Shown in pieces: positions 151 to 55,991 of a stretch of DNA of 55,991 nt. Made by a program: the position numbers and the translations under genes. A model generated the notes under the pieces. It worked only from the letters and a program-made list of their open reading frames with translations, was not told the origin of the DNA and searched no databases. The stretch is from Candidatus Dormiibacterota bacterium (GTDB lineage Bacteria > Chloroflexota > Dormibacteria > CF-121): positions 1 through 55,991 of the forward strand of contig DATNMN010000273.1 of assembly GCA_035602295.1 (NCBI GenBank), given 5' to 3'. Within the stretch, counting starts at the first letter, position 1, and each line of letters starts with the position of its first letter.

Positions 151-1587
151 ATGGCCCAGGTGAATTCGCCAGTCCGTGTGCGCTACGCGCCGAGCCCAAC
201 CGGCGCCCTGCACCTGGGCGGGGCACGAACCGCGCTCTTCAACTACCTGTTCGCCCGTCGCCAGGGTGGGCAGTTCCTGCTGCGGATCGAGGACACTGAC
301 CGGGTGCGTTTCAAGCCCGGCAGCCAGGAGCAGATCGAAGAGGGCCTGCGCTGGTTGGGCATGAACTGGGACGAAAAACCACTCGTCCAGTCAGAACGAA
401 AAGCCATCTACGAGAAGGCGGCCGCCGGCTTGATCGCCAGCGGTGCCGCCTATCGCTGCTTCTGTACACCGCAGCGGCTCGAGCAGATGCGCGCTGAGCA
501 GCGCGCCCGACACGAACCCGAGCGGTACGACCGTCGGTGCCGGGCGATCCCCGCGGACGAGTCAGAGCGACGCGCGGCGGCCGGCGAGCGCTTCGTGGTG
601 CGCCAGGCCATGCCCACCGAGGGCACGACCACCCTGCAAGACCTGGTGATGGGCACGGTCACGTTTCGTAATGACACGCTCGACGACCACGTCCTGCTGA
701 AATCGGATGGCTTCCCCACCTATCACCTCGCCTTCGCCGTCGACGACCACGAGATGCAGATCAGCCACATCATTCGGGGCGACGGCTGGCTGCCCTCCGC
801 ACCGAAGCACCTGCTGCTGTTCCAGGCCTTCACCTGGTTGCCACCGGCCTTCGCCCACCTCCCCCTGGTACTGGGGCCCGACAAAAAACCCCTCGCCAAG
901 CGGCATGGCGCGAAAGACGTGCTCGAGTACCGCGAGGCCGGCTATCTTCCCGAGGCCGTGGACAATTTCATCGCCTTCCTCGGCTGGTCGCCCGGAACCG
1001 AAGAAGACATCCTCACCATGGATCAGCTGATCGAGAAGTTCTCGATCGAGAAGATTCAGGCCAGCCCCGCGATGGCCAACCTGGAGCGGCTGGACTGGCT
1101 CAACGGCCAGTTCATCCGACGCCTGACCGCGGATGAGCTGGCCGCACGGCTGGCGCCCCGCATGCCCGAAGTGCCGGTCGATTCGCTCAAGCCCTTGATG
1201 CCGCTGGTGCAGGAGCGGCTGCGCAGCTTGAACGAGGCCCCCGACATGCTCCGATTCTTCTTCGAGGAACCCAACACCTATCGGCCCGAGCAACTCGTCC
1301 CCAAAGGGCGGGACGCCGCTGGCACCACCAAAGCCCTCACCGATACCGCCACCACCTTGCGGGCATTGCCCAGTTGGACCCCGGAATCGATCGAGCCGGC
1401 GCTGCGCGGACTGGCTGAGCGGCTGGGTTGGTCCTCTCGCGACCTGTTCATGGCGTTGCGGGTGGCGATCACCGGCCGCACGGTGACGCCGCCGCTGATC
1501 GAATCGATCAGCCGTTTGAGCAAGGAGACCGTCCTGGCGCGGCTGGAACGCGCCGGCCGGGCCGTAGCCGAACCGGCGCCTGGCTAA
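151..1587 (+). CDS. gltX: glutamate--tRNA ligase (class I aaRS)
   Basis: Based on ORF 73..1587. It contains VRYAPSPTGALHLGGARTALFNYLFAR, LLRIEDTD and a KMSKS-like LAKRHG. Start moved to ATG 151 (MAQVNSPVRVRY), which fits family N-termini. Confidence 0.93.
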   Translation: MAQVNSPVRVRYAPSPTGALHLGGARTALFNYLFARRQGGQFLLRIEDTDRVRFKPGSQEQIEEGLRWLGMNWDEKPLVQSERKAIYEKAAAGLIASGAAYRCFCTPQRLEQMRAEQRARHEPERYDRRCRAIPADESERRAAAGERFVVRQAMPTEGTTTLQDLVMGTVTFRNDTLDDHVLLKSDGFPTYHLAFAVDDHEMQISHIIRGDGWLPSAPKHLLLFQAFTWLPPAFAHLPLVLGPDKKPLAKRHGAKDVLEYREAGYLPEAVDNFIAFLGWSPGTEEDILTMDQLIEKFSIEKIQASPAMANLERLDWLNGQFIRRLTADELAARLAPRMPEVPVDSLKPLMPLVQERLRSLNEAPDMLRFFFEEPNTYRPEQLVPKGRDAAGTTKALTDTATTLRALPSWTPESIEPALRGLAERLGWSSRDLFMALRVAITGRTVTPPLIESISRLSKETVLARLERAGRAVAEPAPG

Positions 1588-3438: not shown

Positions 3439-4508
3439 GGCAGCAAGTCACCGCCAAAGAGCTGGCGCAGGTAGGCATGGACCGCTGTCCAGTCCGCCAG
3501 TAGGATTTGCTGTCCGTCCGCGGAGATCGCGTCACGCACGTAGGGCGAGATGTACGTCTGATGCACGTCAGCTGGATGGAGGTTGCGCATGAAGAGTGCG
3601 AGCTGGGTGAGGCGCACCAGGTCAAGGTCGGTTTTGACGTGGCCGTTGAGGTCTCGCGCGAAGGTAGGCAGCGCGGTTATCAGGTCCATCCCGGCGGCGC
3701 GTTGTTGAAGAGCAAGCAGCAGCTGTTGCTGCCGAACCGATCGGCCGAAGTCACTCAACAGGTCGCCATGCCGGGAACGGACGTACTGGAGCGCGTGGCG
3801 GCCGTCGAGGTGCTGCGGACCCGCGGCAAGATACACCCGCTCCGTGCCATATCCGCTATCGCTGAAATCGTTCGGATAGTTGTCGTCGAGCACGGGATGA
3901 AGCACGTCGAGGTCGACACCCCCCACGCGATCGATGACGCGCACCAAACCGTTGAGGCCGACCCAGGCGTAGTAATGGATCGGAATCTTGAAGGCCTTCT
4001 CGACCGTGGCGCGAGCCAGGGGGGCGCCGCCCTGCGCGAAGGCAAGGTCGATCTTCGCGCTCGTATGTCCCGGGATGTCCACCCAGAGGTCCCGTGGCAG
4101 CGAGAGCATCGTGACCTGGTGCGTCGAGGGGTCGATCGAAACCACGATCATGGTCTGCGAGAGCAGCGCATCCTGCCGGAACTTCTGGTCATTGTCGCTG
4201 CCGAGCAGGAGGATATTGATCCGCTGCTTCGAGTCGAGCGGCGGCGGCGTGGCCGCTGGGACGCCGGCGACCCGTCCGCGCGATGGCTCATGCGGCTCCA
4301 GTAGCGCCAGCACGGGCGAAAGGTAGATGGCGACGCCGGCGATCAACGCCAGAACGAGCGCGATCGCGCCCACTACGATCCAGCGCACGCGGTGAGAACC
4401 GGGCGCATCCGGCACGCCGGTGGCCGGCGAGTGATTCATGCTTCCCAGCGCAGGCACGTCGCCTGCCCTCCCAAACCTATTAGGCGTGGCCGACGTCGAC
4501 GCGGTCAA
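3435..4508 (-). CDS. LytR-CpsA-Psr (LCP) family cell-envelope phosphotransferase
   Basis: N-terminal TM segment, then INILLLGSDND...SQTMIVVSIDP...MLSLPRDLWVDIPGH, typical of an LCP domain. Start uncertain (TTG 4508 or ATG 4439). Confidence 0.85.
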   Translation of the reverse strand: MTASTSATPNRFGRAGDVPALGSMNHSPATGVPDAPGSHRVRWIVVGAIALVLALIAGVAIYLSPVLALLEPHEPSRGRVAGVPAATPPPLDSKQRINILLLGSDNDQKFRQDALLSQTMIVVSIDPSTHQVTMLSLPRDLWVDIPGHTSAKIDLAFAQGGAPLARATVEKAFKIPIHYYAWVGLNGLVRVIDRVGGVDLDVLHPVLDDNYPNDFSDSGYGTERVYLAAGPQHLDGRHALQYVRSRHGDLLSDFGRSVRQQQLLLALQQRAAGMDLITALPTFARDLNGHVKTDLDLVRLTQLALFMRNLHPADVHQTYISPYVRDAISADGQQILLADWTAVHAYLRQLFGGDLLP

Positions 4509-7077: not shown

Positions 7078-9102
7078 ATGGGCAATCGGCTGGCGGGGGA
7101 GACGAGTCCGTATCTGCTGGAACACGCCCAGAATCCGGTCGACTGGTACCCGTGGGGTGCCGAGGCCCTGGCCAGGGCGCGGACCGACAACAAGCCGATC
7201 CTGCTGAGCATCGGCTATAGCGCCTGTCACTGGTGTCATGTGATGGCCCGCGAGTCTTTTGAAGACGAAGAGACGGCGGCGGCGATGAACCGGGATTTCG
7301 TTGCCATCAAGGTCGACCGTGAAGAACGGCCGGACCTGGACCAGGTCTACATGCGAGCGGTGCAGGCCATGACGGGTTCTGGCGGATGGCCGATGACCGT
7401 TTTTCTTTTGCCCGACGGAACGCCCTTTTTCGCCGGCACTTACTTTCCGTCGAGCGAGCGGTTCGGCATGCCCTCTTTTCGTCGCGTCCTGGCCGCCGTG
7501 GCCGACGCCTTTGCAAACCGGCAGCAGGAAGTCGACGACACGGCCGACCAGGTCCGCGAGTTCCTGAAACGTCCCGCATTACCGCTGGCGGCGGGGACGC
7601 TCGACGCGACTTTGCTCGACGAGGCGTACACGCGACTGGTCCGCGATTACGATGCCGCCCATGGCGGCTTCGGCGGCGCACCCAAATTTCCTCAACCGAT
7701 GCTGCTGGAGTTTCTTCTGCGCACCCATGTCCGGACCGGCCAACCGACCGCGCTGGAGATGGCGACCGACACGCTGCGCTCGATGGCTGCCGGCGGCATG
7801 TATGACCAGCTGGGCGCCGGCTTTCACCGCTACAGTGTCGACGATCGCTGGCTCGTTCCCCACTTCGAGAAGATGCTGTACGACAACGCCTTGCTGGCCC
7901 GCGCATATCTCGATGCCTGGCAGCTGACAAAGGAGCCGGCGTTTGCTCGGGTCGTTGAGGAGACGCTCGCCTTCGTGCAACGCGAGATGACCGCGCCGGA
8001 GGGTGGCTTTTACGCCAGCCTCGACGCCGACACGGAGGGCGAAGAGGGCCGCTTCTACCTGTGGACCCCAGCCGAGCTCGACGCAGTGCTCGGTCCGGAG
8101 CAGGGCGCCGCATTGGCGCGCGCCTTCGATGTCACGCCTGCAGGCAATTTCGAAGCCCACAGCATTCTTCATCCCGTCGCGCCGGGCGCGATCGACCTGC
8201 TTGCCGCGGCCAGGGATCGGCTGCTGTCGGCGCGCGCGCAGCGCGTCCGGCCGCATCGCGACGAGAAGGTTATCGCGGGGTGGAACGGACTGATGCTGCG
8301 GGCGTTTGCCGAGGCGGGGCGGGTGCTGCGCCGGCCCGACCTGGTCGCCGTCGCCGAAGCCAACGCTGCGTTCCTGCTATCGCAGATGCGTACGTCTCAT
8401 CGAATGCGCCGGAGCTACAAAGATGGTCGAGCTCCACTCGCTGGCTACCTCGAGGACCAGGCGGCGGTCGCCGATGGCCTGCTGAGCCTGTACGAAGCAA
8501 CCCTCAATCCGATCTGGCTTGACGACGCCCACGGTCTGCTGGCGGAAATGCTGACCGCGTTTTGGGACGAAACCGAGGCCGCATTCTTTGATACCGCCGA
8601 AGACCAGGAGCAGCTCGTGGTGCGACCGCAGGACGTGACCGACAACGCGGTGCCGTCGGGAACCTCGATGGCGATCGACGTCTTGCTGCGCGCCGGCATG
8701 CTCTTCGGCGAGCAATCATGGATCGACCGGGCCCGCGCGACCCTCGAGCGGCTGGCACCGACCGCGGCCAAGGCGCCGCAGGCGTTTGGCCGCCTCCTCG
8801 CGGCGATGGATTTCTACTTGGGCCGGCCGGTCGAGCTAGCGGTGATCGGCAACCCCGCGGAGCCGCAGGCCAGGGAGTTTCTGGAAGTGCTCAGAGCCCG
8901 TTACCTGCCGAACCGACTGGTCGCCGTCGCACCGCCCGGCCGACCGCCGCAACCGCTGCCGTTGCTCAGCGACCGAACGGCGATTGGTGGAAAGGTGACC
9001 GCCTATCTCTGCGAGGGCTTCGTGTGCCAGACGCCCACCACGGACCCAGCGGAGCTGGAGCGCCAGCTCGAGGCGTTCAGCGCGAGAGCGCTTGCGTCTT
9101 GA
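7078..9102 (+). CDS. thioredoxin-domain DUF255 protein (YyaL / SSP411-like) with six-hairpin glycosidase-like C-terminal region
   Basis: Contains [25 protein letters not shown]...[18 protein letters not shown], the family signature. Confidence 0.88.
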
Positions 9103-51740: not shown

Positions 51741-52028
51741 TCAGGCTCGCTCGGCGAGGCGGCGGTACCCGTCTCGCAGCCGCGGGATCAGGCGGCCGAA
51801 GTTCACCGCCCAGCCGATGCCAACGACCCGGTCGGTGAAGATGCGGGGATCGTCGGGATTCCAGTAGGCGTCGCGGAAGCGCTTGAACGTGGGAAAGCGA
51901 AAGTCATAGGGAACCCCCGCCACCCGTCCGTGCCAGGTCCGCTGGCCCTCCGGCTTGCTCAGCTCCTGCGCGACTGCGGCCAGCGTGAGGAAGAAGACAG
52001 CAGCGCGCAGTAGACGATTGAGCCGCAC
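51741..52028 (-). CDS. small membrane protein, DUF5808-like
   Basis: An N-terminal hydrophobic helix, then GVPYDFRFPTFKRFRDAYWNPDDPRIF..VGIGWAVNFG. The family assignment is from memory. Confidence 0.5.
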   Translation of the reverse strand: MRLNRLLRAAVFFLTLAAVAQELSKPEGQRTWHGRVAGVPYDFRFPTFKRFRDAYWNPDDPRIFTDRVVGIGWAVNFGRLIPRLRDGYRRLAERA

Positions 52029-52031
52029 CGG

Positions 52032-52274
52032 TCAGCCCGCCTTTCGACCCTGGAAGCCCAGGCTGGGCAGGTCCTCGCGGAGGCTTTCCATCGACTTCGC
52101 ACAGATCCAGTGGTCGAGCGCGGCCTTGGAGAAGACAGTGCGTTCACCAACCTTCGTGAACGGAATGGTGCCCTTTTCGACCATCGTCTCGATCAAATCC
52201 GTGGGCATGCCGAGATAACTCGCGGCCTGGAGTGTATTCATCACATAGTTGACGCCGGTTGGATCGAAGATCAC
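52032..52274 (-). CDS. excisionase-family (HTH_17-like) DNA-binding protein
   Basis: Contains MNTLQAASYLGMPTDLIETMVEKGTIPFTKVGERTVFSKAALDHWI. The likely start is ATG 52241. Confidence 0.6.
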   Translation of the reverse strand: MIFDPTGVNYVMNTLQAASYLGMPTDLIETMVEKGTIPFTKVGERTVFSKAALDHWICAKSMESLREDLPSLGFQGRKAG

Positions 52275-52329: not shown

Positions 52330-52403
52330 GGCCCGTTCGTCTAGAGGCCTAGGACGCCGCCCTCTCAAGGCGGAGATCAGCGGTTCGAATCCGCTACGGG
52401 CTA
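52330..52403 (+). tRNA. tRNA-Glu (anticodon CUC), CCA not encoded
   Basis: GGCCCGTTCGTCTAGAGGCCTAGGACGCCGCCCTCTCAAGGCGGAGATCAGCGGTTCGAATCCGCTACGGGCTA. Collinear with E. coli tRNA-Glu. Anticodon loop CTCTCAA. 1:72 is a G-U pair. Confidence 0.85.
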
Positions 52404-52458
52404 CTCCCTCGAATCGATCCTCACCCGCTCAAACGGATAGACGACTTAACCTGCTTCT

Positions 52459-53250
52459 ATGGCCGACCGCCGGGTGGGCGACCTCCTGACCGCACCGAAG
52501 GGATTGCAGCTGCTCGACCTCATCTCGCAACATCAAGCCGCCGACCTGACCGACAACGACTTGAGCGGCCTGCTGCCCCAACTCGACTTCCACGTGACAC
52601 GTTATCGAGGCGACTACGAGGCAACCGTCGAAGCGCTGAAATCCAGAGCGCCGCAGCTCCGCCGTCTGGCGGAGTGGCTGCCGGGGCGGATGGCTCACTG
52701 GTGGGATAACCTCGATCGCAAGAAGCAGATCTGGGTTGGGCGCTCACCCGACCCTCCAGTCGAGGATCAGCTGATCGTTGACCTGACTCCATTCGGCTCT
52801 GAGACACCCAAACCGAAACGGGCCTTCTGGACGAGCACCTTTGTACCGGTTTTGGTCTCACCCTGGCTGCACACTCCCGAGGATCAGTTTTCTGGACCGT
52901 ATTACAAGTGGGAGATCACAGCGACCGATTCCGCACGCGTGCTCGAAATCCATTCACGCGATACGTGGTGGGCCCTTGCGCGGTTCTATCCAAGGGCGGA
53001 GCCCGGGTTCATCTTTACCGCCACACCTCATCGACCCCAAAACGCGGCCCGCCTAGATCCAGACTGGTCCGAGCTGTCGCGCGACTGGGACGGAGTCCAC
53101 CTTTCCGTCGGTGGATGGCTGACCGCCGAAGACGTACCACATGAATCAGATGGCGTGAAGACCGAACTCCGCGGCTGGGACATGGAGTCGACCGTGTGGT
53201 TCCGCTGGTCGTTTACCTCCGTCAACCGCGTTGAAACACTGGAACGCTAA
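52459..53250 (+). CDS. hypothetical protein (unit 1 after tRNA-Glu)
   Basis: 263-aa ORF, Trp-rich, no motif recognised. Lower GC than the upstream region. Confidence 0.5.
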   Translation: MADRRVGDLLTAPKGLQLLDLISQHQAADLTDNDLSGLLPQLDFHVTRYRGDYEATVEALKSRAPQLRRLAEWLPGRMAHWWDNLDRKKQIWVGRSPDPPVEDQLIVDLTPFGSETPKPKRAFWTSTFVPVLVSPWLHTPEDQFSGPYYKWEITATDSARVLEIHSRDTWWALARFYPRAEPGFIFTATPHRPQNAARLDPDWSELSRDWDGVHLSVGGWLTAEDVPHESDGVKTELRGWDMESTVWFRWSFTSVNRVETLER

Positions 53251-53345
53251 CCCACGGTAGCCAGCCGTCAACCCTTCCCAGCACGCCAGTACCGCTCAGG
53301 GCTAGCAGCCTAACTGGCGTCTATTGCACGAGTCCCAATTCGATT

Positions 53346-53371
53346 GTTCGATTAGTGTCCGCCACGGGCTA
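53346..53371 (+). repeat. tRNA-Glu-3'-end-like 26-nt repeat, copy A
   Basis: GTTCGATTAGTGTCCGCCACGGGCTA, preceded by ATTCGATT. Confidence 0.9.
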
Positions 53372-53417
53372 TTGACCATCCGAGATCCGGAACCCGAGGA
53401 ATCCGGAGAATCACGCA

Positions 53418-53879
53418 TCACCCACCAGACTGATTCTGGGCGAGGCGGGGACCAGTCGCCACGATTAGAGCAATGAAGAGTGCCATTAGACCGAGCACGG
53501 CGGGGCCTGCGTTGAAACGAGTCATCGCCCAGTCAGCCTCAGCAACGACAATCGCCAGCGCAATCGGAAGTTGCATCAGCCGGATCGGGATTAGCAGCCG
53601 CCCGCGGGGCCGAAGGGCCGCACGCACCTCCGCGACTGCGAGGGCAACCAGGCAAGGGGCAAGGACAATCCACAGGAAGCCCTGTCCGGAGTGCCCGCAG
53701 GTTGCACCTTGCGGACCAGAAGCACAGCCGTTCCCGGTGCCAATGACGGCAAGCACCGCCGCTACCGCGCCAGCTAGGGCCAACAGCGCCGCCTGAACGA
53801 CGACTGCTGCTCGCCAAGCCGTCATGCGATCAACCACCGCCATTGTCTCGCACACACTAGCATCGAATGAGCTCGGCAC
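53418..53879 (-). CDS. hypothetical integral membrane protein (about 4 TM segments; unit 2)
   Basis: 153-aa hydrophobic ORF. The only minus-strand gene in this block. Start uncertain (internal Met possible). Confidence 0.5.
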   Translation of the reverse strand: MPSSFDASVCETMAVVDRMTAWRAAVVVQAALLALAGAVAAVLAVIGTGNGCASGPQGATCGHSGQGFLWIVLAPCLVALAVAEVRAALRPRGRLLIPIRLMQLPIALAIVVAEADWAMTRFNAGPAVLGLMALFIALIVATGPRLAQNQSGG

Positions 53880-53909
53880 TATCAGGAGTAGCCGCGAGCG
53901 CTATACGAC

Positions 53910-53935
53910 GTTCGAATAGTGTCCGCCACGGGCTA
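53910..53935 (+). repeat. tRNA-Glu-3'-end-like 26-nt repeat, copy B
   Basis: GTTCGAATAGTGTCCGCCACGGGCTA. Its T-loop-like octamer is identical to the tRNA-Glu T-loop region. Confidence 0.9.
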
Positions 53936-54053
53936 TGACCCTCAATTGACGACGTTACCCAAGCTTGGCACGATCGGGCCTGGGCTGAAGCTGACCTGAT
54001 TGCGTTTGGACTCTTGAAGGTGTTACAAAGGCGACAGCGCATCGGCTGCCGAT

Positions 54054-54590
54054 ATGAGGGTCATTGTCTCGGTCGCGCTCACCACCTTTCTTCTGACGGG
54101 CTGTGCTCCCGCTTCAGCGCCTCCGACAGATACCCTGGGCTGCGGGGCACCAACGGCCCTTGAGACATTTTCGGGAGCCAATTCCGAATACCATGGTCAC
54201 CACCTCTTGCACATTGGTCTCTTGTGGCTATCCAACCTTGACGAGTCTCACTCCGAGGCGGTTATCGCCGACTTTAAGCCCGGTATCCCAACAAAGGCAC
54301 CCATATATTTCCCTAGCCCTATTACTACTGCCGTAACCCTCCGAGGCTGGGCGTGCGCAGACGGGACTGCCCTTCACTTCTGGTATAAGCCCGGTTCGCC
54401 AACGCCTGTCGGTCAGACTGTCGGTGCTGCCACTCTGCGACAGGTAGGTGAGGCCTCCGTCGATTTCATGCCTTCAGCCTCCAATGACTCCACGGGGTAC
54501 ATCCTTTTTTGGGCGCCGGGCAAGTATCGGTTAGCCACTTATCACGGCGCAAACCAGTTAGCCGCGGCCGTGGTGGCAGTGCCTCAGTAG
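54054..54590 (+). CDS. hypothetical lipoprotein (unit 3)
   Basis: Lipobox LLTGCAPAS. 178 aa. The lowest-GC stretch in the window by eye. Confidence 0.55.
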   Translation: MRVIVSVALTTFLLTGCAPASAPPTDTLGCGAPTALETFSGANSEYHGHHLLHIGLLWLSNLDESHSEAVIADFKPGIPTKAPIYFPSPITTAVTLRGWACADGTALHFWYKPGSPTPVGQTVGAATLRQVGEASVDFMPSASNDSTGYILFWAPGKYRLATYHGANQLAAAVVAVPQ

Positions 54591-54605
54591 AGTCTTCCAC
54601 CTAAT

Positions 54606-54631
54606 GTTCGATTAGTGTCCGCCACGGGCTA
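54606..54631 (+). repeat. tRNA-Glu-3'-end-like 26-nt repeat, copy C
   Basis: GTTCGATTAGTGTCCGCCACGGGCTA, 16 nt after the lipoprotein stop. Confidence 0.9.
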
Positions 54632-54744
54632 CTATCCGAACACCATGCGAACGCTCATCCTTACGATCGCCCCGCAGAGAACCCGTGATCGGATCCGGGT
54701 CTTCGGTCGGCCGACAGGCGTGATATCGTCCTTGGCTGGCCACG

Positions 54745-55623
54745 ATGGCTAGCGGCAATGTCCGGTTCGACCATTTCCTTACCTACGTAGAGGCGCCCAG
54801 CATCGACCGGTACCTGGAGAGGTACCGAAGCACGGGCTTCCTCGTGAGCGACCGAACCGAGCGACATGACCCCGGATTGCGGAACGGCGTCGTTTTCTTC
54901 GGCTCGCAATACATCGAGTTCTGCTGGGTCGAGGACGAAGCGCTCTTTTCCAAGGGCGAGCCTGATGAGGCCGTCATGCGGCGAGCTCATCGTCCCTTCG
55001 CAATCGGCTTGGTCAGCGAAGACATTCAGGCGACGCATGACGACTGGCTTGCGCGAGGCCGTGACCTGCCGAAGGTGTTCAGCAAAGCTGAGCGGGGCGC
55101 CGACAATGTTCCTCCCAGTTGGAGTTTTCAGGAGATCCCTGAGGCGCTGCTTCCCGGTGCGTGGTGCTTTGCGCTCACTTACCACATCAGGCGCCCACCC
55201 GAGAGGATCGCTCCCAACTCGACGTACGCGATCGCGGGTACAACCTTCGTCTCGTCCTCGGCGGAAGAACATGCTGCGGCATGGCGCGACCTATTGGCGC
55301 CCGAGGCATCGATCGACAGCTCAGACGAAGCGTATCGCGTCACAATTGGTCCTCACATCGCCCGGTGGATGGAGCCACGGCAATACGAGCGTCGATATGG
55401 TCGCTCGTGGGAGCCCGCGCTGCACCGGTTTGGCGAGCTGGCGATCCTGCACGTTCTGGCGACAGACCTACAGCGTGTCCAGTCCGCTTTGGTCGGTTCC
55501 GGCAGAGAAGTCATTCCTGTGGACCCACCGTCCACCGACGAGCCAGGCCTCTTTCTGCCGCCGGATGCACAAGACGGTTTCAGCTTTGTCGTCACCGAGC
55601 AACCGATTGGAAAAGTGAAGTAG
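54745..55623 (+). CDS. glyoxalase-like (VOC-fold) domain protein (unit 4)
   Basis: VRFDHFLTYVEAPSIDRYLERYRSTGFLV..HDPGLRNGVVFFGSQYIEFCWVED resembles the Glyoxalase-like domain family. Confidence 0.55.
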   Translation: MASGNVRFDHFLTYVEAPSIDRYLERYRSTGFLVSDRTERHDPGLRNGVVFFGSQYIEFCWVEDEALFSKGEPDEAVMRRAHRPFAIGLVSEDIQATHDDWLARGRDLPKVFSKAERGADNVPPSWSFQEIPEALLPGAWCFALTYHIRRPPERIAPNSTYAIAGTTFVSSSAEEHAAAWRDLLAPEASIDSSDEAYRVTIGPHIARWMEPRQYERRYGRSWEPALHRFGELAILHVLATDLQRVQSALVGSGREVIPVDPPSTDEPGLFLPPDAQDGFSFVVTEQPIGKVK

Positions 55624-55689
55624 TCGATCGCTGTCGACGCTGTGGTCAACTTGCCCCATCCAGCCCCGGGTACCCATTCGAGTTCGATT

Positions 55690-55715
55690 GTTCGATTAGT
55701 GTCCGCCACGGGCTA
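55690..55715 (+). repeat. tRNA-Glu-3'-end-like 26-nt repeat, copy D
   Basis: GTTCGATTAGTGTCCGCCACGGGCTA, preceded by ATTCGAGTTCGATT. Confidence 0.9.
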
Positions 55716-55917
55716 CTCACCTGACACTCCTTCGAACGCCGGGGTTTCCACTTTCGGCCGGGACTCAGCCGTCCGGGATCAACTCCATGAGGCCAATCAG
55801 ACCATGTCCAAACGTCCGCCAAGGCTAGTTCTCCACAACCCTTCCCGAAGCGAGATATTCTGTGTTCGGGAACGCCACGCAATCGGGGCGGTGGGAGTGC
55901 CGCCAGGGAGGGAAGTG

Positions 55918-55991
55918 ATGTATCGCCACCGAGCCTATCAGCAGGTTGTGTACGGACGCTTCAACGACTTCTTGAAGACCGTCGAGGAGCT
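55918..55991 (+). CDS. partial CDS (5' end; runs off right edge), hypothetical (unit 5)
   Basis: ATG 55918 after GGGAGGGAAG. Reads MYRHRAYQQVVYGRFNDFLKTVEE. Confidence 0.35.
   Translation, partial: MYRHRAYQQVVYGRFNDFLKTVEE

Follow-up and report, generated by a model that had tools for sequence, protein, structure and literature searches.

The distal end of a 55,991-nt stretch of Candidatus Dormiibacterota DNA (assembly GCA_035602295.1, contig DATNMN010000273.1; hereafter the window) carries a putative gene-cassette array downstream of a tRNA-Glu(CUC) gene. Public loci used for comparison are designated by L-numbers. The array is punctuated by a 26-mer, GTTCGAWTAGTGTCCGCCACGGGCTA (= GTTCGATTAGTGTCCGCCACGGGCTA), which occurs exactly at 53346-53371, 54606-54631, and 55690-55715, and with one substitution at 53910-53935. 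All four copies are on the + strand, downstream of the tRNA gene and in the same direction, and the number of matches expected by chance is 0 (100 shuffles of the sequence). A preliminary description of the window had listed these four copies with the same positions, substitution, and shared orientation, and it was accurate on each point. One main open reading frame (ORF) lies between successive copies. The units measure ~0.6-1.1 kb each and contain one gene apiece, and each is closed by a copy of the site:

52330-52404, + strand: tRNA-Glu(CUC) gene (ARAGORN 52330-52404; Rfam 52330-52403, 60.1 bits).
52405-53371, + strand: cassette 1, with a 263-aa ORF at 52459-53250 (+) that has no Pfam match; ends in site S1 (26-mer at 53346-53371).
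53372-53935, + strand: cassette 2, with a small hydrophobic ORF of multi-transmembrane-like character at 53418-53879 (-); ends in site S2 (53910-53935), the GTTCGAAT variant.
53936-54631, + strand: cassette 3, with a 178-aa predicted lipoprotein at 54054-54590 (+), lipobox LTGC; ends in site S3 (54606-54631).
54632-55715, + strand: cassette 4, with a 292-aa Glyoxalase_3-family protein at 54745-55623 (+); ends in site S4 (55690-55715).
55716-55991, + strand: start of cassette 5, with a 104-aa ORF from 55918; the cassette is cut by the window end.

The single ORF between copies, the lipoprotein, the glyoxalase-like protein, and the fifth ORF at 55918 had all been anticipated in the preliminary description. 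The lipoprotein is supported by its lipobox and the glyoxalase-like protein by a match to Pfam PF13468 (Glyoxalase_3), precomputed for an identical protein.

The 3′ end of tRNA-Glu(CUC) reads GTTCGAAT-CCGCT-ACGGGCTA, and its 3′ segment at 52383-52403 is GTTCGAATCCGCTACGGGCTA. The window repeat reads GTTCGAWT-AGTGT-CCGCC-ACGGGCTA. It comprises the T-loop, a 5-nt insertion (AGTGT), CCGCC (the 3′ strand of the T-stem with a T-to-C change), and the 3′ strand of the acceptor with the discriminator base. Alignment confirmed the earlier view of the repeat as the tRNA-Glu 3′ end plus a 5-nt insertion; the copy previously labeled copy B is identical to the tRNA at 20 of 21 positions, apart from the insertion. 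The conserved site extends to the left of the 26-mer first noticed, with c.AATTCRATT directly on its 5′ side (ccaattcgatt at 53335-53345 in site S1). When an nhmmer model of the site was run over the 56-kb window, the only match outside the array was the tRNA's own 3′ end. The repeats and their genes are best explained as the tRNA-proximal portion of a gene-cassette array that is chromosomal and conserved throughout Candidatus Dormiibacterota. We infer that the 3′ segment of tRNA-Glu(CUC) is the proximal recombination site of this array, in an attI/attB-like role.

The G+C content at 52-55 kb is 0.59-0.61, compared with ~0.65 for the whole window. The G+C drop pointed out earlier is thus real but modest, and one further 1-kb bin, at 31-32 kb, is equally low. 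ARAGORN also reported a 91-nt tRNA-Trp at 1488-1578 (-); it has no Rfam tRNA match at the gathering score and is probably a false positive in G+C-rich sequence.

Distribution and conservation of the site

The genome scan covered one genome per GTDB species, and the five insertion positions were left free in the search pattern. It returned 28 stretches in 19 metagenome-assembled genomes (MAGs), nearly all of them assigned to Candidatus Dormiibacterota or to older 'Chloroflexi' labels of the same group. Single site-bearing contigs were also present in bins named Limnocylindria, Acidoferrum, and Nitrosopolaris. In the 19 MAGs with exact matches, the sites are on 1-4 contigs each and always form co-oriented arrays, and there are one or two array loci per genome. 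The metagenome scan gave at least 120 contigs with the site. The nhmmer model identified 461 sites in 159 public loci among the matches listed, a scope that applies to all locus counts given below. Orientation is mixed within a locus in none of the 159 loci. The genome-wide dispersal of a generic repeat, which had been raised beforehand as evidence that would speak against an array, was not seen.

The site consensus of 26-37 bp is c.AATTCRATT-GTTCGAWT-AGTGT-CCGCC-ACGGGCTA, so written that the 3′ site end of a cassette is ...CCGCCACGGGCTA. Conservation ends abruptly after GGGCTA, beyond which there is a weak preference for C[CT]A.CC or TGACC. The flank CCCTC.AAT.GA, said in the preliminary description to be shared by copy B and the tRNA, belongs to this loose family-wide right flank; as a specific resemblance it is weak and needs an indel. 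AGTGT is kept in ~95% of the copies although the search left these positions free. The tRNA always has CCGCT whereas the sites have CCGCC, and ~95% of the sites differ from the tRNA by both the 5-nt insertion and the T-to-C change. The site is nearly identical across species whose core proteins are just 59-90% identical. The conservation of AGTGT through 19 MAGs and at least 120 metagenome contigs agrees with the earlier proposal that the shared insertion marks a maintained site.

Among the 16 sites that lack AGTGT, three (L015, L063, and L098) retain CCGCT as in the tRNA. In one cassette family, whose ORF ends in ...RLDELLISS*, a GC hairpin comes next, and an insertion-less site (GGTTCGAATCCGCCACGGGCTA) lies behind it. 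This family was seen at L169 ~7980-8060, at L050 ~8640-8720 and ~1650-1730, and in L105, L115, and L071. ARAGORN at low stringency places implausible tRNAs at the sites of this family. The insertion-less form GGTTCGAATCCGCCACGGGCTA may be the ancestral form of the site.

Chromosomal anchor and flanks

tRNA-Glu(CUC) is present in 39 of the loci, and every one of them has the array directly downstream of this gene and co-oriented with it. The upstream synteny is conserved (HTH_17, DUF5808, a response regulator, and a GH38 enzyme), and the distal flank consists of conserved chromosome (methyltransferase, MEDS/HisK, and SLT). We clustered the ORFs beyond the last site in 107 loci; the recurrent ones are a methyltransferase, HisK/MEDS, a response regulator, an ABC transporter, and a glyoxalase, which are ordinary chromosomal genes. 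In the window, the two genes nearest to the tRNA on the upstream side are as follows:

52032-52274, - strand: HTH_17 (excisionase-fold) gene, 80 aa, directly upstream of the tRNA.
51741-52028, - strand: DUF5808 gene, next to the HTH_17 gene.

This pair stands beside tRNA-Glu(CUC) in ~33 of the 39 tRNA loci, with amino acid identities of 59-99%, and the loci without it are mostly those with little sequence upstream of the tRNA. The pair may be plain core synteny, or it may provide a DNA-binding accessory factor for the array. A role of the HTH_17 gene in recombination is speculative.

Some genomes have a second array, which begins at a bare 21-22-nt fragment of the tRNA-Glu 3′ end and extends as far as a convergent tRNA-Arg(CCG) gene. 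Such fragments, with the CCGCT of the tRNA and no tRNA body, are located at 7433-7461 (-) in L015, ~7545-7569 (-) in L098, and ~1051-1072 (+) in L063. In L015 and L098, not in L063, the fragment is followed by CTTAACCGAACACTWTTCGAACGCCCC, and both start a second array. The convergent tRNA-Arg(CCG) was seen at the end of the second array in several loci. Upstream of the fragment in L098 are a TetR gene and a MacB-type ABC transporter, and no integrase.

Cassette rearrangements and proposed crossover position

The cassettes are shuffled as modules between arrays. Their neighbors differ between loci for 15 of the 54 cassette families that have at least two members. Homology between cassette copies starts right after GGGCTA of the upstream site and stops at GGGCTA of the cassette's own site. 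For 54 pairs with a common cassette and a different one after it, ungapped identity within the site is 0.94 and falls to 0.26 at +1 and 0.11 at +2; the 5′ cassette boundaries exhibit the mirror pattern. The preliminary description had placed a cassette-accumulating array beside a stack of islands, and had named a fixed gene order in relatives as evidence against its proposal. Rearrangements at the repeat boundaries were found instead. Together with the tRNA anchor in 39 of 39 loci, the units that are polymorphic between strains and species and the breakpoints exactly at the repeat favor the first option.

Several cassettes bounded by the tRNA at the first position are internal cassettes elsewhere, aligned from position 1 (L148 with L062/L143, L128 with L104, and L055 with L123), suggesting that the tRNA tail is an equivalent recombination partner. 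L016 and L136, which are 96-99% identical, differ in cassette order. L016 has the order tRNA-A (1565 bp)-B (541 bp) and L136 has tRNA-B-A, and the distal flank that comes next is the same in both. The CCAGGGGCTA variant moves with the 3′ end of cassette B, and the sequence is cassette-specific from +1 onward. These two features and the presence of CCGCT in the tRNA versus CCGCC in the sites suggest that the exchange takes place inside GGGCTA or at its end. In this pair (L016 3171/4736/5277 and L136 2150/2691/4256), the fifth base past GGGCTA (+5) goes with the left partner, the tRNA being followed by T and an internal site by C, and the bases from +6 onward follow the cassette. This pattern hints at an overlap region that reaches some bases beyond GGGCTA.

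The sequences used for comparison all come from short-read assembly, and many contigs end in or near arrays, so that chimeric metagenome assembly at the repeats might mimic shuffling. However, the repeat (≤45 bp) is below the final k-mers given in the contig identifiers (k127 and k141), and independent samples and assemblers reproduce the same arrangements (the window, L001, and L003-L008; L016 versus L136). For these two reasons, assembly chimeras are an extremely unlikely source of the rearrangements.

The contiguous identity between the tRNA and the sites at the crossover is just 8-13 bp. This is far below the length that RecA-type recombination uses efficiently, and it favors an enzyme-catalyzed conservative site-specific reaction. 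The same numbers bear on the possibility that the site is an intergenic repeat with another role (protein-binding, terminator-like, or similar to repetitive extragenic palindromic (REP) sequences), which offers short homology for RecA or slippage recombination and for the uptake of foreign DNA with no dedicated recombinase. Identical direct repeats of 26-37 bp could support rare deletions and duplications, and no linked recombinase was found (described below). On the other hand, the site has no hairpin, no excess structure, and no terminator signal. It is confined to one or two tRNA-anchored, co-oriented arrays per genome, with no copy in the remaining 52 kb of the window, and it exchanges with the tRNA 3′ end over the short identity just mentioned, with breakpoints at one exact position. 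We regard an intergenic repeat of this kind as quite improbable.

In the mechanism that we propose, cassettes would be excised, inserted, and reordered by conservative site-specific recombination, presumably through a circular intermediate. The partners would be two cassette sites, or a cassette site and the tRNA's own 3′ end, and the strands would be exchanged within or at the end of the GGGCTA common to both partners. The tRNA would stay intact with its own CCGCT T-stem strand, and the cassette would keep its own site at its 3′ end. An inverted copy of the left site arm stands at the start of nine of 305 cassettes and gives 15-bp arms and an 18-bp spacer centered on GGGCTA (between GGGC and TA). 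This geometry, though rare, is also compatible with a serine recombinase.

Size, orientation, and content of the cassettes

The 302 inter-site cassettes have a median length of 696 bp (5-95% range, 406-1686 bp) and fall into 182 sequence families. Up to nine or more units are packed into 10 kb (L056 and L015). The longest ORFs run with the site orientation in 98 cases and against it in 76 (~44% antisense); in public gene calls for the window's own array, five ORFs run with the site and three against it. The cargo includes SDR, SnoaL, glyoxalase/bleomycin-type, cupin, DinB, and Kelch proteins, methyltransferases, a PIN toxin, and MORC-like HATPase_c_3 proteins. Most cassette ORFs appear to lack a Pfam match, because just 62 Pfam families were matched among 150 representative cassette ORFs. 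A scan of the array for promoters and terminators gave nothing above shuffled sequences. A large cassette of 2.3-3.3 kb is recurrent; it encodes a protein of ~500-540 aa with the HATPase_c_3 (MORC-like) domain (L157 4093-5709, L014 4566-6038, L100 5651-7147, and L036 3957-5561), and may be a defense gene carried as a cassette.

The single orientation of the sites and the presence of ORFs in either direction argue for a function at the DNA level rather than the RNA level. In an RNA-level element, the 3′ ends of transcripts would carry the tRNA-like tail as a mark, be it for processing, for CCA addition, or for the priming of a reverse transcriptase, and the units would spread via RNA. The site does resemble a T-loop with a 3′ acceptor strand, and 87 of 305 distinct downstream flanks begin with CCA. 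However, no minihelix is possible because no complementary 5′ acceptor or T-stem strand lies upstream, and no Rfam family other than tRNA was matched. The Pfam listings of the loci contain no reverse transcriptase, and the antisense share of the ORFs is also difficult to reconcile with this explanation, which we consider very improbable.

Several cassettes of the window could be followed in other loci. A copy of cassette 1 that is 93% identical occupies an internal position in L095, with homology beginning at cassette position 22. The 263-aa protein of cassette 1 was considered as a hidden recombinase and rejected, as it has no Pfam match and is a plain cassette elsewhere (L095). In L001 and L002 (1-2235), no tRNA precedes cassette 1, which follows other genes, one of them for an HTH_20 protein; homology to the window begins 21 nt past the tRNA end (window 52405-52425), the same start point as in the L095 copy. 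This context could reflect a rearrangement, a second locus, or a variable 5′ end of the cassette. The cassette 2 ORF is called as 135-141 aa in public contigs and has no Pfam match, and the cassette 3 product likewise has none. A protein identical to the 292-aa product of cassette 4 is encoded in public contigs of the window's species. Cassette 5 opens with an inverted partial copy of a site arm (ctcacctgacactccttcgaac). Its family is present in six other arrays with different neighbors, and it is the first cassette after the tRNA in L143. L001 carries the array 2.1 kb beyond the window end, with further sites at L001 6175-6200, 6889-6914, and 7602-7627. Within the window's own species, L007 parts from L001 and L002 exactly after site S5.

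Search for a recombinase

Recombinases were sought with phmmer, for which XerC of E. coli, the Int proteins of lambda and phiC31, and an L013 fragment served as seeds, and with a hidden Markov model of 55 integrase sequences that was run over ~1.09 Mb of loci. Matches were obtained only in L157, L013, L102, and L067. None of the 302 inter-site units holds an integrase; those of L157 and L013 lie beyond the last site, and hmmsearch over ~0.96 Mb detected no integrase remnants inside the arrays. The xis-int module of L157 and a degenerate site are 57 bp apart, and the L013 contig stops inside its integrase gene. A carrier was not found either: viral contigs gave no matches to the cassette-type or the tRNA-type site, and plasmids and phages gave none by blastn.

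The integrases of L157 and L013 were examined as candidates for the array enzyme and set aside. Close homologues of both are associated with other tRNAs and have no array sites near them, and neither family can be assigned to the array on this ground. Elements of the L157 type with a visible tRNA (L162-L165, L171, and L174) are always at tRNA-SeC, and a 69-nt duplication of the tRNA is evident in L165. The tRNA-SeC elements are small and classical, contain xis-int and 1-5 cargo genes in 4.4-7.8 kb, and have a 69-nt direct repeat of the 3′ part of the tRNA. They were noted at 440-494 and 4855-4954 in L165 and at 4098-4152 and 11883-11982 in L162. The integrase of the elements in L165 and L162 is ~85% identical to that of L157.

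Several observations weigh against a cassette system driven by site-specific recombination. The preliminary description led us to expect a recombinase near the array, and this expectation failed: there is none in the window, including the 52 kb upstream, none in the 2.1-kb extension in L001, and none in the conserved flanks in other genomes. No recombinase is encoded within 10 kb of the arrays on a 1.5-Mb contig and an 867-kb contig, and Pfam listings of the 10 kb to either side of the tRNA in L167 and L169 contain no integrase. Four tyrosine-recombinase ORFs are present in ~0.96 Mb of array-bearing sequence, and just two of them abut an array (L157 and L013). Homologues of the L157-type integrase, with 85-92% identity, belong to small xis-int elements with no array sites nearby; those of the L013 type are near tRNA-Cys or in unrelated contexts, likewise with no array sites nearby. 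Serine recombinases were probed with the phiC31 seed only. The 16 sites without AGTGT leave the recognition sequence of the enzyme in doubt, and the +5 base in L016 and L136 does not fit a crossover strictly before +1. The comparative data are MAGs and metagenome contigs throughout, many of them short, and no circular cassette junctions or empty sites were observed in these contigs.

The array could also be a collapsed stack of tRNA-Glu-targeting integrative elements, similar to cis-mobilizable elements (CIMEs), in which the sites are att scars and the units are relics that have lost the integrase and most of the cargo. The origin of the sites from a tRNA 3′ end, the xis-int modules at the distal array end in L157 and L013, the bare tRNA-Glu 3′ fragments with CCGCT at the second locus, and the small classical elements of the same integrase family at tRNA-SeC with their 69-nt tRNA duplication are all consistent with such a stack. 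However, the units are small throughout, as a rule with a single intact gene, and the arrays are free of integrase remnants. Independent scars would copy the tRNA and then drift, whereas ~95% of the sites share both the insertion and the T-to-C change. In addition, the same cassettes appear in permuted order and in different arrays. A stack of relics is thus unlikely in our judgment.

On balance, we consider it probable that the locus is a tRNA-anchored gene-cassette array with integron-like gene capture by site-specific recombination in Candidatus Dormiibacterota. The array architecture, its conservation through the phylum, the shuffling of modules, and the exact position of the breakpoints are direct observations; catalysis by a site-specific enzyme, the class of that enzyme, and the circular intermediate are deduced. 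Because no recombinase is linked to the array, neither integrase family is tied to the site, and no viral, plasmid, or phage carrier was found, the enzyme would act in trans. It is most likely a tRNA-targeting tyrosine integrase, for example from integrative elements like those that abut two arrays. Our confidence in any specific enzyme assignment is much lower than in the cassette array itself.

Comparison with known systems and implications

The array has many features in common with sedentary chromosomal integrons and with clusters of attC sites lacking integron-integrases (CALINs). It consists of co-oriented short units, mostly single genes, with the site at the 3′ end of each unit. The proximal insertion site is fixed, and cassettes are shared between genomes in another order or with other neighbors. 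As in integrons, each cassette moves whole, the breakpoints fall at a fixed position of the site, and the cargo is diverse, small, and accessory, with many genes of unknown function and with PIN toxin, glyoxalase/bleomycin-type, and SnoaL members. In contrast to an integron, which has adjacent intI and attI, the array has no adjacent intI, and its proximal site is a functional tRNA gene. The attC sites contain imperfect inverted repeats (R″-L″...L′-R′), form hairpins as single strands, and are conserved by structure rather than by sequence. The array site, in contrast, is a sequence-conserved, tRNA-derived element of 26-37 bp with no hairpin signal. Folding with DNA parameters, done for either strand of 80 distinct sites, gave a flat mean pairing-probability profile of ~0.55 with no attC-like structure, the sole feature being an adjacent TTCGATT. 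Integron cassettes are for the most part single ORFs that lack a promoter and run in the array direction. The units here are of single-gene size, and their gene orientation is mixed, so that the array does not appear to follow the logic of a Pc-driven operon.

Similarity to tRNA islands and CIMEs is found in the tRNA 3′ end as the attachment site, the direct tail repeats that bound the units, and the occasional xis-int at the edge. An island of the Islander type has its integrase inside, next to an att end, and the displaced fragment is an exact direct repeat of the 3′ part of the tRNA. In the array, no unit contains an integrase, and ~95% of the sites are not exact tRNA copies. The islands are multi-kb elements, whereas the array units are ~0.7 kb with one gene, and they keep a derived consensus (AGTGT and CCGCC) across the phylum. 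CIMEs are flanked by att sites and have no recombination or transfer genes of their own. The array fits this architecture, but no cognate element or integrase is tied to its site. The units could be mobilizable in trans or in cis, as they are flanked by att-like sites though they lack an integrase.

REP sequences and bacterial interspersed mosaic elements, miniature inverted-repeat transposable element (MITE)-like repeats, and the dRS3 repeats and intergenic mosaic elements of Neisseria are likewise short conserved intergenic repeats and possible recombinase targets. REP- and MITE-type repeats are dispersed in both orientations and usually palindromic. The array site has none of these properties, and it bounds whole genes.

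The array thus shares its logic with integrons and CALINs and the ancestry of its site with tRNA islands and CIMEs, yet it departs from defining features of both. To our knowledge, no bacterial system other than integrons that stockpiles and shuffles cassettes of single genes is well understood, and all known integrons need IntI and a folded attC. The full-text literature that we searched contains no description of tRNA-anchored cassette arrays or integron-like elements in Dormiibacterota. The array may represent an independently evolved integron-like capture system, a second origin outside IntI/attC. Its site would imitate the tRNA-Glu 3′ end in double-stranded form, cassettes would be inserted at the living tRNA gene, and the genome or a visiting element would supply the recombinase in trans. 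We regard the case for this stronger proposal as evenly balanced.

If the proposal is correct, cassette platforms can arise from ordinary tRNA-targeting site-specific recombination. The system bears on the origin of cassettes and their sites because the tRNA-tail ancestry of the site is still legible. A compact site of 26-37 bp with a tRNA attB could be paired with an integrase for genome engineering. The arrays would also expose a mobile pool of accessory genes in an abundant uncultured soil phylum, one that is probably invisible to detection tools based on attC or intI.

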